NCBI GenBank assembly: GCA_009773455.1
Contig: WSXU01000001.1
Location: forward strand, 117,186-181,185
DNA: 64,000 nt
Source: Bacteroidota bacterium
GTDB taxonomy: Bacteria; Bacteroidota; Bacteroidia; Bacteroidales; Lentimicrobiaceae
Reading direction: 5' to 3'
Shown: positions 46,970 to 55,190 of the stretch, in pieces
How positions within the stretch are numbered: position 1 is the first letter of the stretch
Layout of the letters: every line of letters begins with the position of its first letter
Program-made: the position numbers and the translations under genes
The notes under the pieces: generated by a model
Databases searched by the model: none
The model's input: the letters and a program-made list of their open reading frames with translations, nothing else
What the model was told of the DNA's origin: nothing

Positions 46970-48244
46970 ATGATCATCGAAGTTAAAGTACCCAGCCCTG
47001 GCGAATCCATTTCTGAAGTGCAACTGGCCAGCTGGCTCGTCAGTGATGGCGATTTTGTGGAAAAAGATGCCGAGATAGCCGAGATTGACTCGGACAAGGC
47101 AACCCTAACCATCAACGCAGCGGCGGATGGCATCATAAAAATCCTGGTCGAAGCCGGCGAAACCATCAAAGTCGGCGCTGTGGTTGCAAACATCGATGCA
47201 TCGGCTGCAAAGCCCGCCAAAAAGGATCAGCCGGCCAAAGCACCGCTTAAGGAAAAGGCTGCCACTGTTGCCCCACCAGTTCCACCAATGGCTGAAAAAA
47301 AACCTGTTGAATCAAAACCGGGACCTGTGGAAGAAGCCGCACTTCACATCTCGCCCCTGGCCCGGAAACTGATGCAGGAGAAAAACATTACGACCGACGA
47401 TATCATCACCTACTTCTCGAACCTGCGCATCAGCAAAGCCGATGTGGAAGAGGTGGCCGCCGGCAAAGGCACGGCTGCTCCCCGTCTGCAGATACCTGCA
47501 TCAAAGGAAACCACGCGGAATACCGAACGCAAAAAGATGACCACCCTGCGGACAAAACTGGCGCAGCGCCTGGTAGCCGTAAAGAACGAGACCGCCATGC
47601 TCACCACCTTCAACGAGGTGAACATGAGCCGCATCATGGAGGTAAGAAAAAAATACAACGACAAATTTAAGGAGAAGTATGCTGTTTCGCTCGGATTTAT
47701 GTCGCTGTTCACCAAGGCCGTTACCATTGCCCTGCAGCAGTTTCCTCAGGTCAATGCCATGATCGACGGCGACGAGATGGTTTACCACGACTATGCTGAT
47801 GTGGGCATAGCGGTCAGTGCTCCGAAAGGGCTGGTGGTACCCGTGGTGCGGAATGCCGAAAGCCTCAGCCTGGCACAGCTCGAACTGGCCATCAAGGAGC
47901 TGGCCATAAAAGCCCGCGACAATAAAATTACCCTGGAGGATATGACCGGTGGTACCTTTACCATCACCAACGGCGGTGTGTTCGGTTCCATGATGTCAAC
48001 CCCCATCCTCAATCCGCCACAGAGCGCCATCCTGGGCATGCACAACATCATTGAAAGACCCATTGCCGTAAACGGACAGGTCGTCATCGCCCCGATGATG
48101 TATGTGGCCCTCTCCTACGATCACAGGGTCATCGACGGGCGTGAGTCGGTCGGTTTCCTGGTTAAAGTAAAAGAGCTGCTCGAAAACCCGGAAAGAATGC
48201 TGTTTGACGGGTTGGATCCGGTGCAGGCGTTGCTTGAGGTTTAG
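46970..48244 (+). CDS. sucB: Dihydrolipoyllysine succinyltransferase E2
   Basis: Lipoyl [37 protein letters not shown]; start 46970 (MIIEVKVP). Confidence 0.95.
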
Positions 48245-48416
48245 GGTTGGACGTTCGGGGTTAGAAGTTGGGCGTTGGACGTTAAATGTTGTTCAATCGC
48301 TTCGCGGTTCAATAACCTTCGGCTGTTCAATCGTTTAATACGCTCTGGCGTTCAATTGGTTGTATCGCTGCGCAGTTCAGAAAGTTCAATTGCTTCGCGG
48401 CTCAATCGCCTTCGGA
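48239..48416. repeat. Intergenic heptamer run (GTTNNNN x7) followed by GTTCAAT units separated by mini-hairpins
   Basis: GTTTAGG GTTGGAC GTTCGGG GTTAGAA GTTGGGC GTTGGAC GTTAAAT; GTTCAAT at 48291, 48307, 48325, 48350, 48384 and GCTCAAT at 48400. Confidence 0.7.
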
Positions 48417-48522
48417 TGCCTGCCTGCCAGCTTGCATGTTGTATTCAGGAAGGATTGATCAAACCAGCGTTTAAAACCTTCAAACAGGGAATGAAATTCT
48501 ATCTGCCAGATGCGACAGAGGG

Positions 48523-50130: not shown

Positions 50131-51714
50131 ATGCGAAAAAAAGTTGATTTCCTGGTCATAGGCACAGGTATTGCCGGTTTGAGTTATGCGCTGAAAGTAT
50201 CGGCCTATGGCAAGGTTTGTATCGTTACCAAGAGTGAAGCCCAGGAAAGCGCCACCCGATATGCCCAGGGCGGTATCGCCGCAGTAATGTACACACCCGA
50301 TACTTACGAAAAACACATCCGTGATACAATGATCGCCGGGGACGACCTGAGCGACCCTGAAATCGTACGCATCACCATTACCGAATCAACCGACCGTGTG
50401 AAAGAGCTTGTTGAATGGGGCGTGGCGTTTGATAAAAATCCGACCGGAAAATATGACCTGGCCAAAGAAGGCGGCCATTCCGAATTCAGGGTGCTCCACC
50501 ACAAAGACCAGACCGGGGCTGAGATTGAGAACAGCCTGCTGCAAAGGGTGAAGGAAAATAAAAACATCGAAATCCTCGAAAACCACTTTGCCGTCGACAT
50601 CATTACCGAACACCATTTTGAGAACGGGAAGAGCCCGGACAGCGACAGCATCACTTGTTACGGGGCCTATGTGCTCAACAAATCGAACCACCACATCATT
50701 ACCATTCTTGCCAAAACAACCATGATTGCCACCGGTGGGGCCGGCAACGTGTATGCCACCACCACCAACCCTCCGGTAGCCACCGGCGATGGCATTGCCA
50801 TGGTGAAACGGGCCAACGGTGACATTGAGAAAATGGAGTTTATCCAGTTCCACCCGACATCCCTCTACAACCCGGCCGAGAAACCCTCCTTCCTGATCAC
50901 CGAAGCCCTCAGGGGCTCGGGGGCGGTGCTGAAAACCCGCCAGGGAAAGGAGTTTATGCAGAAATACGATGCGAGACTGTCGCTGGCTCCCCGTGATATT
51001 GTCGCCCGGGCCATCGACAACGAACTGAAAATCAGCGGAGACGATTTTGTGTGCCTCGATGCCCGCCACCTCGATATGCAGGTGATCCTTAACCACTTTC
51101 CGGCCATTTACGCCAAGTGCCTCAGCATCGGCATCGACATGACAAAAGTGATGATCCCGGTTGTGCCGGCCGCCCACTACACCTGCGGCGGAATCAGGGT
51201 GGATGCCTATGCCCGTTGCAAAATCAGGAATCTTTACGCCTCCGGTGAATGCGCCTCTACCGGTCTGCATGGTGCCAACCGCCTGGCTTCCAATTCACTG
51301 CTCGAATCATTGGTATTTTCACACAGGGCCGCGCTCGACGCAGTTACGCTGGCCAAAAGACTCCAGTTTATGAATGAAATACCAGACTGGAATGCATCAG
51401 GAACCGTATTCAACGAGGAAATGATCCTGATTACCCAGTCGCTGAAGGAACTGCAGGGCATTATGACCAATTATGTCGGTATTGTCAGGTCGAACCTGAG
51501 GCTCAAACGGGCTTATGACAGGTTGCAGATACTCCAGGAAGAGACCGAAGACCTTTATGAAAAGTCGGTACTGACCGAAAAAATCTGTGAATTGAGGAAT
51601 ATGATTACTGTGGCCGGCCTGATCATTCAAATGGCCATGGAACGAAAAGAAAGCCGGGGGCTGCATCATAGCATCGATTACCCGAAGCAATACAAGACCG
51701 AAGGTGCGAACTAA
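50131..51714 (+). CDS. nadB: L-aspartate oxidase
   Basis: GTGIAG, AQGGIA, EGGHS..RVLH, IATGG, QFHPT, LITEALRG, LAPRDIVARAI, PAAHYTCGG, HGANRLASNSLLE, ESRGLH. Confidence 0.96.
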   Translation: MRKKVDFLVIGTGIAGLSYALKVSAYGKVCIVTKSEAQESATRYAQGGIAAVMYTPDTYEKHIRDTMIAGDDLSDPEIVRITITESTDRVKELVEWGVAFDKNPTGKYDLAKEGGHSEFRVLHHKDQTGAEIENSLLQRVKENKNIEILENHFAVDIITEHHFENGKSPDSDSITCYGAYVLNKSNHHIITILAKTTMIATGGAGNVYATTTNPPVATGDGIAMVKRANGDIEKMEFIQFHPTSLYNPAEKPSFLITEALRGSGAVLKTRQGKEFMQKYDARLSLAPRDIVARAIDNELKISGDDFVCLDARHLDMQVILNHFPAIYAKCLSIGIDMTKVMIPVVPAAHYTCGGIRVDAYARCKIRNLYASGECASTGLHGANRLASNSLLESLVFSHRAALDAVTLAKRLQFMNEIPDWNASGTVFNEEMILITQSLKELQGIMTNYVGIVRSNLRLKRAYDRLQILQEETEDLYEKSVLTEKICELRNMITVAGLIIQMAMERKESRGLHHSIDYPKQYKTEGAN

Positions 51715-51951
51715 GCGAGGGAGTGAGGGGGCGACCAGGTAATAGAGTGAAGGAAAACGACTTCAGCGATCTGTCAATATCCGGGTTATAAGGGTTCTAA
51801 AAGATTGGTTAGCATGAATGTTGGACATTGAACGTCAGGAATGGGAAATTGGGATTTTGGGTTTAGAAATTAGAAATTGTCATTCCTTCCTTTCATTATG
51901 CTTTTTCAAATAATTATCCAGGTACAAAAAATAAATCAGGAGACTTACAAG

Positions 51952-52485
51952 ATGGCACTGATCAGAGATGTAAAGGGAATCCACCCAAAAATCGGAAAAA
52001 ACTGCTATTTCGCCGAGAATGCAACCATCGTTGGTGAAGTTGAAATGGGCGACAACTGCAGTGTGTGGTTTAACGCAGTGGTGCGCGGGGATGTGCATTA
52101 CATTAAAATCGGCAACAATGTCAATATTCAGGATGGGGCCATCATTCACTGCACTTACCAGAAAGCACCGGTGAACATCGGCAACAATGTTTCCATTGCC
52201 CACAATGCCATTGTGCATGGTTGCACGATACACGACAATGTGCTGATCGGCATGGGTGCCATTGTAATGGATGGCGTAGTGGTTGAAAGCAACTCCATCA
52301 TCGCCGCCGGTGCCGTGGTTTCGCAGGGTACCCTGGTTGAATCAGGCAGTGTGTACGCCGGGGTCCCTGCCAAGAAAATCAAATCCATCGACACCAAACT
52401 GCTCGAAGGACAGGTAAACCGCATATCCAAAAGCTATACCATGTATGCCAGCTGGCACGACCCTTCGATTGAACCGGTTATTTAA
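51952..52485 (+). CDS. Gamma-carbonic anhydrase family protein (hexapeptide repeats)
   Basis: WFNAVVRGD, NIQDGAIIHC, IAHNAIVHGC (three His ligands); start 51952 preferred over TTG 51877. Confidence 0.9.
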   Translation: MALIRDVKGIHPKIGKNCYFAENATIVGEVEMGDNCSVWFNAVVRGDVHYIKIGNNVNIQDGAIIHCTYQKAPVNIGNNVSIAHNAIVHGCTIHDNVLIGMGAIVMDGVVVESNSIIAAGAVVSQGTLVESGSVYAGVPAKKIKSIDTKLLEGQVNRISKSYTMYASWHDPSIEPVI

Positions 52486-52494
52486 AAAGAAAAT

Positions 52495-53114
52495 GGGACG
52501 GGGGACGGGAAAATGGGAAGGGGGACGAAATTCCTGCTTCTTTGGACCAAGGGACTAGGAGAATGGGAGACAAGGTGGCTGAGTGATTTGCCTTGAATAA
52601 CACGGTTGTTAAATTCTATGTTGCAAATCGTATCGAAGACACCGGGAGTGGGTAATCCTGCTTTTATTGACAAGGGGACGAGAAACGGGAAAATGGGACG
52701 AGGGACGAAATTCCTGCTTCTGTGGACCAGGGGACATGGAGAATGGGAGACAAGGTGGCTGATTGATTTGCCTTGAATAACACGGTTGTTAAATTCTATG
52801 TTGCAAATCGTATCGAAGACACCGGGAATGGCTAATCCTGCTTTTATTGACAAGGGGACGAGAAACGGGAAAATGGGGCGAGGGATGAAATACCTGCTTC
52901 TGTGGACCTGGGGACAAGGAGAATGGGAGACAAGGTGGCTGAGTGATTTGCCTTTAATCACATGGTTGTTAAATTCTATGTTGCAAATCGTATCGAAGAC
53001 ACCGGGAATGGGTAATCCTGCTTTTATTGACAAGGGGGACGGGGGACGGGAAAATGGGACGGGGGACGAAATTCCTGCTTCTTTGGACCAGGGGACAAGG
53101 AGAATGGGAGACAA
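52495..53114. repeat. Tandem array of about 3.4 copies of a 180-bp unit
   Basis: Blocks starting at 52501, 52681 and 52861 align without gaps; partial fourth copy from about 53042 (one extra base); copies 1 and 2 differ at 12 of 180 positions. Confidence 0.95.
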
Positions 53115-53206
53115 AGAGATTGGAAATTCCTGTTTTCTGACATCTGACTTCCGACTTTGAGCCCGCCAAAGGTGGAAAAACTTTGGGCCCTCCATAGGCG
53201 GGTAAA

Positions 53207-53237
53207 CTTTGAGCTTTGGACTTTAGACTTTGAGCTT
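53207..53237. repeat. Heptamer run, left arm of an inverted repeat around the YugP-like gene
   Basis: CTTTGAG CTTTGGA CTTTAGA CTTTGAG CTT; 53220-53237 is the exact reverse complement of 54011-54028. Confidence 0.8.
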
Positions 53238-53317
53238 CCAGATACTGCCATTCTGTCAACCAAACCTTATGGCAGACTTTTTGTTGAATATTGACAAACC
53301 AAAAAAAGAAGATAAAA

Positions 53318-53995
53318 ATGGGATATTTAATAATTTTCGGAGTTTTTATGTTGCTGAGCTGGGTCATCGGTGCCCGTCTGAAGTCAAAATTCAGACAGTT
53401 CAGCCAGATTCCGGTCAACAATGGATACAGCGGGGCTGAGATTGCCGAAAGGATGCTCCGCGACAATGGTGTTTTTGATGTGCAAATAGTATCGGTCCAG
53501 GGTGAGCTCACCGACCATTATAACCCCCAGAACAAGACGGTTAACCTTAGTCCGGATGTTTACCATGGGCGGAATATATCAGCGGCTGCTGTGGCTGCCC
53601 ACGAATGCGGACATGCAGTTCAGCATGCCAATGCCTATGCCTGGCTTCAGATGCGTTCTTCGCTGGTTCCGGTGGTCAGTTTTGCCTCCAACTGGGTGCA
53701 ATGGGTATTGCTTGCCGGAATCCTGCTGGTAAATACCTTTCCCGGATTGTTGCTGGCAGGTATTGTCCTGTTTGCGATGACCACCCTGTTCAGCTTTATC
53801 ACACTTCCTGTTGAGATTGATGCCAGCCGCCGCGCCATTGCCTGGCTTGATGGCAGCGGAATCACCACCACCGCCACCCTTCCAAAAGCACAGGAGGCCC
53901 TGCGCTGGGCAGCTTATACCTATGTGGTTGCAGCCCTAGCTTCACTGGCTACCCTGCTTTACTACATTATGATTTTTATGGGGAGAAGGGAATAG
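53318..53995 (+). CDS. Membrane zinc metallopeptidase (YugP-like, Zn_peptidase_2)
   Basis: LTDHYNP, LSPDVY, AAHECGHA (HExxH), TLPVEIDAS, WAAYTYV; start 53318 preferred. Confidence 0.9.
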   Translation: MGYLIIFGVFMLLSWVIGARLKSKFRQFSQIPVNNGYSGAEIAERMLRDNGVFDVQIVSVQGELTDHYNPQNKTVNLSPDVYHGRNISAAAVAAHECGHAVQHANAYAWLQMRSSLVPVVSFASNWVQWVLLAGILLVNTFPGLLLAGIVLFAMTTLFSFITLPVEIDASRRAIAWLDGSGITTTATLPKAQEALRWAAYTYVVAALASLATLLYYIMIFMGRRE

Positions 53996-54002
53996 GAAGC
54001 GT

Positions 54003-54033
54003 AAAGCTTAAAGCTCAAAGTCTAAAGTTTAGA
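54003..54033. repeat. Heptamer run, right arm of the inverted repeat
   Basis: AAAGCTT AAAGCTC AAAGTCT AAAGTTT, starting 8 bp after the peptidase stop codon. Confidence 0.8.
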
Positions 54034-54266
54034 GTTTAATATTTAAACGGGACTCACCCGGACTTGATGGGTAATAAGTTTAAGCCTGAATTAAATTCAG
54101 TATAGTCAATTCAATAATCGCCGCAGGAAATCCCTGTGGCGGTTATTTATTCTGAATGGCAAGATGGAATTGCACCAGCACTTAATATCTTTGCTCCGGT
54201 AAATCCGTAATTCATAAATGATTCACGGAAAATTCCTGATTTTACACACACATTTGATTTCATTTC

Positions 54267-55190
54267 ATGGAGATACATCTTATACACTGGATTGCATTCC
54301 TCGTTTTTGTCTTTCTTATGCTGGCGCTCGATCTGGGCGTTTTTCACCGGAAATCACACGAGGTAAAAATAAAGGAAGCCCTTTTATGGAGCCTGGTATG
54401 GATCCTGCTGGCCCTCGTGTTTAACTACTTTGTTTACTTCTACATGGGGAAGGTTAAGGCCCTGGAATTCCTGGCCGGTTACCTGATTGAGAAGTCACTC
54501 AGTGTAGATAACCTGTTTGTGTTCCTATTGCTGTTTGGCTATTTCAATGTTGAACCAAAGTACCAGCATAAGGTGCTTTTCTGGGGAATCCTTGGGGCAC
54601 TGATCATGCGTGCGGTCTTTATATTCGCGGGTGTAGCCCTTCTCAACAGTTTCCATTGGCTTATCTACGTGTTTGGCGCATTCCTGGTATTTACAGGGAT
54701 AAAGATGCTATCACCCGGAGATGCTAAGGTAGAACCCGAAAAAAATGTACTGGTAAGACTCTTTAAAAAAGTATTTCCTGTTACAAAGGAGATGAGGGGT
54801 GGAAATTTCTTTGTCAGGGAGAATTCGAAACTTTTTGCAACCCCGCTTTTTGTTGTGCTGATTGTTGTTGAGTTTACCGACCTGATCTTTGCAGTCGACT
54901 CAATTCCTGCCATCCTTGCCATTTCAAAGGATACCTTTATCATCTTCACCTCCAATGTTTTTGCGATTCTGGGTCTGCGGGCGCTCTATTTCGCCCTGGC
55001 CGGTATCACGAGGTATTTCTTTTATCTGAAGTATGGCCTAGCTATAATCCTGGCCTTTGTCGGATTGAAAATGCTGGTAAGCGGATATTATAAATTTCCT
55101 GTCACCTGGTCGCTGGCTGTTATTTTCGGCATCCTCCTGCTGACAATCATAGCTTCTGTCATTTTCCCTAAGAAAGAGAAAATCGTCTGA
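54267..55190 (+). CDS. TerC/Alx family metal homeostasis membrane protein
   Basis: LALDLG, GYLIEKSLSVDNLFVF, TDLIFAVDSIPA, SNVFAILGLRALYF; TATCTTTG box at 54186-54193. Confidence 0.93.
   Translation: MEIHLIHWIAFLVFVFLMLALDLGVFHRKSHEVKIKEALLWSLVWILLALVFNYFVYFYMGKVKALEFLAGYLIEKSLSVDNLFVFLLLFGYFNVEPKYQHKVLFWGILGALIMRAVFIFAGVALLNSFHWLIYVFGAFLVFTGIKMLSPGDAKVEPEKNVLVRLFKKVFPVTKEMRGGNFFVRENSKLFATPLFVVLIVVEFTDLIFAVDSIPAILAISKDTFIIFTSNVFAILGLRALYFALAGITRYFFYLKYGLAIILAFVGLKMLVSGYYKFPVTWSLAVIFGILLLTIIASVIFPKKEKIV

Follow-up and report, generated by a model that had tools for sequence, protein, structure and literature searches.

Tandem repeats in bacterial intergenic spacers have been described in several forms. 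The mycobacterial interspersed repetitive unit-variable number tandem repeat (MIRU-VNTR) loci are intergenic minisatellites, in which the MIRUs form one unit family at ~40 loci per genome. NsiR1 of Nostoc is encoded by ~12 tandem units, each comprising a promoter, a small RNA (sRNA) and a terminator, and is an abundant, discrete RNA. For other bacteria, among them a few Bacteroidetes, both intergenic direct repeats of heptamers and their origin by slippage are established (PMC4679880, citing Mrazek 2007). Examples are the TAACTGA repeats, found in Beggiatoaceae, Cyanobacteria and a few Bacteroidetes (PMC4679880), and polymerase slippage is the accepted source of heptamer repeats (PMC4679880, citing Mrazek 2007). 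Here, an array of three ~100-bp cores, which alternate head to tail with four ~80-bp purine-rich linkers, is analyzed. It occupies positions 52495–53114 of a 64,000-nucleotide stretch of Lentimicrobiaceae DNA (the window), downstream of a gene of the gamma-carbonic-anhydrase (gamma-CA) family. With a probability of roughly 0.68, it represents a hypervariable minisatellite (VNTR) of intergenic DNA, arranged as (linker-core)n-linker, in which the core is a passenger.

Like bacterial VNTR loci, the array consists of head-to-tail, non-coding units, from tens of bp to ~200 bp long, in a spacer between co-oriented genes, close strains differ in copy number, and resizing would proceed by slippage or unequal recombination. 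Tandem units of ~10–200 bp, a copy number that varies between strains and the lack of coding are the generic properties of an intergenic VNTR, and all three are found here. In contrast to the MIRUs, the window core was found at one locus in a narrow clade. Its unit is also two-tiered, as a degenerate heptamer tract is joined to a unique core, and in a sister species the locus is occupied by a different core. The second likeness is to the long simple sequence repeats (LSSR) and the short tandemly repeated repetitive (STRR)-type heptamers of cyanobacteria. The linkers and the rest of the spacer are strictly intergenic 7/8-mer runs, the heptamers differ by lineage and the array lengths by strain. 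For the linker, tandem intergenic units within the 5–11-nt range of LSSR were found, and these recur in the genome. Unlike LSSR, the window linkers are degenerate (period-7 matches of 68–100% over 2–5 copies in Tandem Repeats Finder, TRF) and they carry a 180-bp higher-order repeat, which is not described in PMC4679880 and in Mrazek 2007 as cited there.

Two further systems invite comparison. NsiR1 shares with the array the near-identical, non-coding units of 100–200 bp, placed head to tail upstream of a gene; unlike NsiR1, the array is without a promoter box, a convincing terminator or structure support, and no RNA was found in the transcript data described below. Clustered regularly interspaced short palindromic repeats (CRISPR) likewise alternate two kinds of segment regularly. 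A CRISPR was nevertheless rejected, as the would-be spacers are 96–97% identical and the would-be repeats are 80 nt long, degenerate, purine-rich and 85–96% identical; an initial reading made from the letters of the window (the sequence-only reading) had come to the same view. The array adds one more example to the known bacterial minisatellites of intergenic spacers, here nested in heptamer repeats. Only one aspect is unusual, namely that sister species have arrays on the same tract but with unrelated cores.

Architecture and copy number of the array

TRF assigned a period of 180 to the array, with 3.4 copies at 52505–53114 (93% matches, no indels, score 1064). A repeat search recovered four 79-nt linkers at spacings of 180, 180 and 181, linkers 2–4 being 89%, 85% and 96% identical to linker 1. 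The cores are 96–97% identical to one another, and a 63-nt core pattern occurs three times in the window at ≤3 mismatches as opposed to 0 times in 100 shuffles. These results bear out the 180-bp array of three cores and four linkers that the sequence-only reading had proposed. Its finer points were recomputed and hold as well: GACAAGG is present at 52569 and 52669, the 12 sites that distinguish unit 1 from unit 2 comprise 9 linker and 3 core positions, and 52604–52647 (44 nt) is invariant across all three cores. The same is true of the shared linker variants, linkers 1 and 4 carrying GGGGACGGGA and TTTGG and linkers 2 and 3 carrying AGAAACGGGA and TGTGG.

All segments are described on the plus strand. 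Linker 1 (52486–52568) is a degenerate 7/8-mer tract of 74% A+G, which holds GAAATTCCTGCTTCT and a G-quadruplex (G4) motif at 52495–52517. This is immediately followed by core 1 (52569–52668), which is 100 bp of AT-richer, unique sequence, and by linker 2 (52669–52748) with the AGAAACGGGA/TGTGG variant. Core 2 (52749–52848) is 97% identical to core 1, and linker 3 (52849–52928) belongs to the variant class of linker 2. Core 3 (52929–53028) is 96% identical to core 1 and has private changes at 52955, 52959 and 52963, while linker 4 (53029–53114) is 96% identical to linker 1 and holds a second G4 motif at 53034–53058. Overall, the linkers are 73–74% purine and the cores are AT-richer; in pairwise comparison the cores vary by 4% as opposed to 11% for the linkers. 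The motif (A/T)TCCTGCTT, that is, (A/T)TCCTGC, occurs once per linker and once at the end of each core. The two G4 motifs, both in the outer linkers, are the only canonical ones ((G3+N1-7)x4) on either strand of the window, and G-to-A changes disrupt the motif in the inner linkers. Period-7 runs were detected at 52495–52509, 53034–53068, 53135–53157 and 53206–53232, and also at 48246–48283 and 53997–54039; they are degenerate, with 68–100% matches.

Copy number was estimated by comparing the depth of the common core piece with that of the flanks in Logan unitigs from three independent groundwater or subsurface metagenomes, X1–X3. The core was found at a depth of 31 against 6.7–7.5 for the flanks in X1 (~4.4x), at 19–21 against 7 in X2 (~2.9x) and at 9.5 against 3.8 in X3 (~2.5x). 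Thus, with the core at ~2.5–4.4x flank depth, the reads do not collapse the array to one copy, and the multiple copies are not an assembly artefact. In X1, every window-specific junction unitig was recovered with 0 differences. This run also has one additional linker variant, and its depths fit ~4 cores, one above the window; the three copies of the window are therefore a minimum for the X1 population. In X4, X5 and X8, a 210-nt (180+k-1) cycle unitig is present at ~1x depth. Reading these contigs as plain single-copy cores was rejected, as they are 180+30 cycle unitigs in which only the ~1x depth is informative.

Loci of this type break short-read assemblies of Lentimicrobiaceae. Assemblies of the window strain from short reads stop in the array: L004, L005 and L006 end in linker 1 or core 1, with L005 matching the window and breaking inside core 1. 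The L091 contig and many Logan contigs also terminate in such repeat loci.

Gain and loss of units among strains and a sister species

The related loci are from Lentimicrobiaceae (order Bacteroidales) of groundwater, subsurface, freshwater and sludge. Orthologous spacers were found in other assemblies by exact look-up of the gamma-CA protein, and the strains identical in this protein carry 0 cores (L001–L003), a 20-nt remnant (L191), one core (L007) or ~3–4 cores (the window and X1–X3). The three core-free alleles come from metagenome-assembled genomes with contigs of 242–988 kb; each has one linker-like tract and a spacer of 272–292 nt. In L007, the single core lies between two linkers and is 86% identical to the window core, with 1-nt indels. 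The flanking genes of L007 and L002 differ at 1/534 and 5/504 positions, yet the core is present in the former and absent from the latter, and L002 equals L007 minus everything between two GGACAWGGAGAA repeats. L191 has lost all of the core but its final ~20 nt (CCTGCATTTATTGACAAGGGG), which are joined to GAAATTCCTGC of the linker at CCTGC. This allele reads as a deletion between two copies of (A/T)TCCTGC, in which (A/T)TCCTGCTT would be the microhomology. The window differs from the L007/L001 lineage at ~30% of 4-fold sites. On parsimony, the core would already have been at the site in the common ancestor of the two, and the empty alleles would be deletions.

Linker variation is mosaic. In addition to the pairing of linkers 1/4 and 2/3 within the array, further linker variants are common to X1–X5 and X8, a pattern that repeated unequal exchange or conversion should produce. 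Near-identical strains have gained and lost whole units, the losses end in short direct repeats of the linker, and the linkers are mosaics. The enzymatic route would be either RecA-type unequal exchange or polymerase slippage. One of the two explanations offered in the sequence-only reading, the amplification of a small element through recombination in the octamer runs, agrees with the 0, 1 or ~3–4 cores of near-identical strains and the deletion ends in linker short repeats. It is also favored by the parallel array of the sister species, in which a homologous linker accompanies an unrelated core. For groundwater and sludge communities, VNTR typing of the array could be used to tell strains apart.

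The sister species was found in ten places via look-up of a peptidase variant of the same 90% cluster (P0003), and in gamma-CA 43% of 4-fold sites separate it from the window. Its spacer is 278–300 nt in most alleles, which have one linker, but 860 nt in L183 and 1197 nt in L177. The extra length of these two spacers is due to tandem 168–170-nt units, of which L177 holds ~5. Overall, the unit number in this species is 0, 2 or 5, although L177, L183, L178 and L179 are only 0–1 nt apart in the flanking genes. Likewise, the unit of the sister species pairs a purine-rich tract with a unique segment. Between this tract and the window linker there is homology (GACAAGGGGACACGGTGAATGGGGGACAAGG against GACCAGGGGACATGGAGAATGGGAGACAAGG, 27/31 identical), with a score that was reached by 0/300 shuffles. 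For the two cores, similarity is no better than chance, with 89/500 shuffles reaching the score. Therefore, it is the linker tract and not the core that is common to both arrays. Unrelated cores on one tract in two sister species amount to a small natural experiment on the origin of bacterial minisatellites. A shorter version of the sister-species core is present in L091.

In other Lentimicrobiaceae lineages the same spacer is filled with different 7/8-mer runs (GATTGCG, GATTAGC, GACTTCC, AATCCGA, CTCCTTA and others), and here, too, higher-order duplications and strain-level indels are seen. For example, L186, L188 and L189 contain a 72-nt unit, which is not detected as a repeat in L187, where the spacer is 16 nt shorter. 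What persists at the locus is a repeat-prone tract and not any given core. Although they have mainly been known from cyanobacteria and a few further groups, degenerate heptamer tracts also shape the intergenic DNA of an environmental Bacteroidales family, in which they can seed higher-order repeats whose turnover is as fast as the divergence of strains.

Several other observations touch on these tracts. Among the loose ends of X1 is a 33-nt linker piece (window 52725–52757, the GACCAGGGGACATGGAGAATGGGAGACAAGG region) in another context, among different purine-rich 7/8-mers, and linker-like tracts are therefore present at other loci of this or a related genome. In L188 (78–394) and L189 (204–495), the spacer upstream of gamma-CA also has tandem repeats (99–108 nt x2 and 40 nt x2), so that repeat-rich spacers are not confined to the one between gamma-CA and peptidase. 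On a 3.7-Mb Lentimicrobium contig (L190; 1–1256 and 1979–2501), a DDE_Tnp_1 transposase gene takes the place of the nadB-like gene upstream of gamma-CA, and the spacer has an insert with the inverted repeats GGATGACACAGATG...CCGTGTCATCC amid GATTGCG and GATTAGC heptamers.

The minisatellite reading supposes the following course of events. The linker would be a degenerate purine-rich 7/8-mer run that has been downstream of gamma-CA since before the split from the sister species, and in this heptamer tract a higher-order tandem duplication would have been seeded. Two similar 80-bp linkers then flank the core, and because of this, unequal homologous recombination or replication slippage could add or remove whole 180-bp units. 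It is possible that the G4 motifs of the outer linkers stall replication forks and so promote exchange. The sister-species linker is without four G-tracts, however, and G4 formation therefore cannot be the general cause.

A different account of the same two arrays is site-specific cassette capture, in which the purine-rich tract would be an attachment site for small circles or fragments that carry a linker. This would explain how unrelated cores came to stand in tandem on one tract in two species, and it draws on the two non-homologous cores beside a homologous linker at one locus and on the empty alleles, which keep exactly one linker. A third unrelated sequence points the same way: one array unit in both L177 (1628–1809) and L183 (1796–1977) contains a 182-nt insert with two GACCCCGCTGGGGTC hairpins. 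Capture is nevertheless a very doubtful explanation, as neither the window nor most relatives have a recombinase or transposase beside the locus, and the cores did not turn up anywhere else in the collections searched and are without terminal inverted repeats. Moreover, the empty alleles and the L191 remnant are more simply deletions between short repeats, and the two cores begin at different offsets from the common 31-mer. As for the insert itself, it is identical in L177 and L183, is absent from the other loci and may be a small REP (repetitive extragenic palindromic)- or MITE (miniature inverted-repeat transposable element)-like insertion. It is very improbable that the tract is a dedicated recombination site which captured unrelated short sequences independently in the sister species and amplified them into arrays. 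If it were, it would be a minimal cassette-capture locus, either independent of protein or dependent on a recombinase acting in trans, and it would possibly yield 3'-UTR (untranslated region)-derived RNAs with a dosage set by copy number.

The core as element, RNA, protein or spacer

In the sequences searched, the core is confined to its locus. No further copy is present in the window beyond the array, and nhmmer and blastn searches of 1.06 Mb of related loci found it only in the window, L005, L007 and, as the remnant, L191. The 22-base core pattern TTGCAAATCGNNNCGAAGACACCGG had 0 matches in 185,579 species genomes, JGI metagenome contigs and IMG/VR, and two units had no match in phage and plasmid collections (blastn, distant settings). 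The core is carried by seven of eight metagenomes, and in none of these seven does a core unitig lead into foreign sequence. No inverted repeats were found at the core ends, and a MITE or other small mobile element was rejected on the grounds of the single locus and the lack of terminal inverted repeats.

The second explanation put forward in the sequence-only reading was a multi-copy cassette of structured non-coding RNA (ncRNA), in which every core would give a small RNA, either from its own transcription or by the processing of read-through at the linkers. Several features agree with it. The three cores share the 44-nt invariant stretch, they vary less than the linkers and are less diverged than synonymous sites, and the GATTTGC/GCAAATC helix is predicted in all three window copies. 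In the fold proposed by the sequence-only reading, to which this helix belongs, one pair of the helix is broken in L007. The private changes of core 3 lie in or beside the inner hairpin of that fold and disrupt two of its pairs. Searches with Rfam 15 (E≤10, both strands) gave nothing in the array and only chance matches outside it. The folding z-scores are ordinary, at -0.74, +0.06 and +0.59 for the window cores and -1.27 for L007, and the minus strand is no better. In RNAalifold, 0/25 predicted pairs are compensatory and the covariation term is +1, a comparison of low power as it holds 4 sequences from 2 lineages; four pairs are broken in one sequence each, three of them in L007 (the helix pair included) and one in window core 3.

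Transcription was approached through promoters and RNA data. Primary-sigma promoters of Bacteroidetes have a TAnnTTTG -7 box, and none of this type was found in the array on either strand, even when the pattern was relaxed. Sigma-70-like TTGACA-N16-GAAAAT matches, which occur at each core/linker junction, were set aside because they are not of the Bacteroidetes promoter type and the array has no TAnnTTTG box. No RNA contigs covering 52483–53265 were found in four freshwater metatranscriptomes (X22–X25) that hold near-exact contigs of the peptidase mRNA, although these communities may or may not carry the array; X9, the DNA run that matches the sample of one of them, is too thin to show it. Core words were also absent from the indexed RNA runs. 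On covariation and transcripts, two of the counts by which the sequence-only reading had proposed to judge it, the ncRNA cassette gained no support (0 compensatory pairs and no RNA contigs). As the core is also deleted in several lineages and limited to a narrow clade, the cassette is regarded as quite improbable. On present evidence, the array reveals no new RNA or new genetic system.

A 237-aa frame is open on the minus strand through the whole array (52482–53195) and was judged spurious. That it encodes a repeat protein, or is the remnant of such a gene, could be argued from the frame being open across all three units and from unit lengths of 180 and 168, which are both multiples of three. 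This is extremely improbable. The frame has no homologue among 5.8 billion protein clusters, Pfam assigns no family to any of four array open reading frames including this one, and 1-nt indels break it in L007. The 19 variable sites are spread 7/6/6 over the codon positions in every frame, with no codon-position bias, and the plus-strand frame has stops in cores 1 and 2. The array is non-coding, as judged from the frames and their variation.

No function of the core as a sequence-specific RNA, protein or mobile element was detected in these searches. Any function likely operates through length or copy number, for example by spacing or weak insulation of gamma-CA read-through from the peptidase promoter.

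Some points weigh against an array with a passenger core. Between the window and L007 the core is 14% diverged as opposed to ~30% at 4-fold sites, and relative to the X8 strain there are 3 listed differences in the ~100-nt core as opposed to ~15% at third codon positions. An unconstrained passenger is expected to diverge faster, so that a core slower than synonymous sites is a poor fit. In addition, the units differ from one another by 3–7%, which is above expectation for a very recent duplication. The VNTR model also leaves the origin of the first linker-core-linker state unaccounted for. Finally, copy number was derived from k-mer depth and assemblies instead of long reads; a search for long-read runs found none listed. 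With respect to rate, the linker (11%) and the remaining alignable spacer (11%) diverge as slowly as the core; constraint, conversion or gene flow is therefore spacer-wide and not specific to the core. The slow divergence of the spacer may reflect general intergenic constraint, conversion or gene flow.

This slowness of the whole spacer keeps a cis-regulatory reading alive. Here, the plus-strand units would be weak terminator or insulator modules, or distance elements, acting in cis as a spacer whose effect depends on copy number. Gain and loss of units would adjust read-through or promoter isolation in the stretch from the gamma-CA transcript to the promoter/operator of peptidase and TerC, in the fashion of a contingency locus. 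Each core ends, on the plus strand, in a weak terminator-like hairpin with a T-rich tail, CGGGAnnnnnnnnTCCTG CTTTTATT (52643–52668, 52823–52848 and 53003–53028). The array also lies directly between a stop codon and a strongly conserved promoter-like element, the spacer rate is ~0.4–0.5 of the synonymous rate, and the spacer is repeat-rich and length-variable in many lineages. Even so, this reading is considered unlikely. The hairpins are weak, having 5 pairs of which one is a wobble, and the T-tail is interrupted in L007. Core-free alleles in several populations indicate that the modules are dispensable, and no comparable hairpin plus T-run is present in the unrelated sister-species core.

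Flanking genes and neighboring repeats

The genes within ~3 kb of the array are nadB-like, gamma-CA, YugP peptidase, TerC and acetyltransferase. The upstream flank is the gamma-CA-family (Hexapep) gene, which was taken from the open reading frame list (51952–52485, plus strand, TAA stop at 52483–52485). Pfam Hexapep/LbH was matched on the identical protein in L001–L008. The downstream flank is a gene for a YugP-type zinc metallopeptidase (Zn_peptidase_2; 53318–53995, plus strand), followed by TerC at 54267. These assignments confirm the earlier placement of the array between a gamma-CA gene and a YugP-like peptidase.

The array is upstream of the putative promoter/operator element of the peptidase gene (53246–53284, plus strand), which reads CTGCCATTCTGTCAACC-N9-TGGCAGACTTTTTG and is kept in at least 15 Lentimicrobiaceae lineages. 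The element lies ~45 nt 5' of the peptidase ATG and is likely the promoter/operator of that gene. It combines a TGyCA-N3/4-TGwCA palindrome with TGGCA-N6-TTG. The latter is in the -24/-12 register of sigma-54 promoters, but the C of the -12 GC is missing. Further downstream, TATCTTTG at 54186–54193 is the sole exact TAnnTTTG -7 box within 51700–54400. TerC probably has its own promoter, because this box is ~75 nt upstream of the TerC ATG (54267). No yybP-ykoY riboswitch was detected in the TerC leader.

Between the array and the promoter-like element, the downstream part of the spacer (53115–53245, plus strand) consists of pyrimidine-rich heptamer runs (TTCTGAC, ACTTTGA/G) and a 26-nt x2.3 repeat, and it is a member of a repeat family that is dispersed in related metagenomes. 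At 53168–53255, ACTTTGAG-type heptamers are accompanied by a CCCGCC...GGCGGG hairpin, both belonging to the dispersed family. These repeats reach a depth of up to 370x, as opposed to 21x for the flanks, in the sludge run X13, and 2–4x in other runs. Many of the contigs that carry them lead into unrelated sequence, and several are preceded by GCCTGCCTGCGGCAGGCAGGC+TTTTT terminators.

Other heptamer or short tandem runs stand directly 3' of stop codons in the window. AAGCTTA is repeated six times after the peptidase gene (53997–54039), and after the gene ending at 48244, five copies of GTTGGAC are followed by GTTCAATCGCTTCGGCG-type units (48246–48420).

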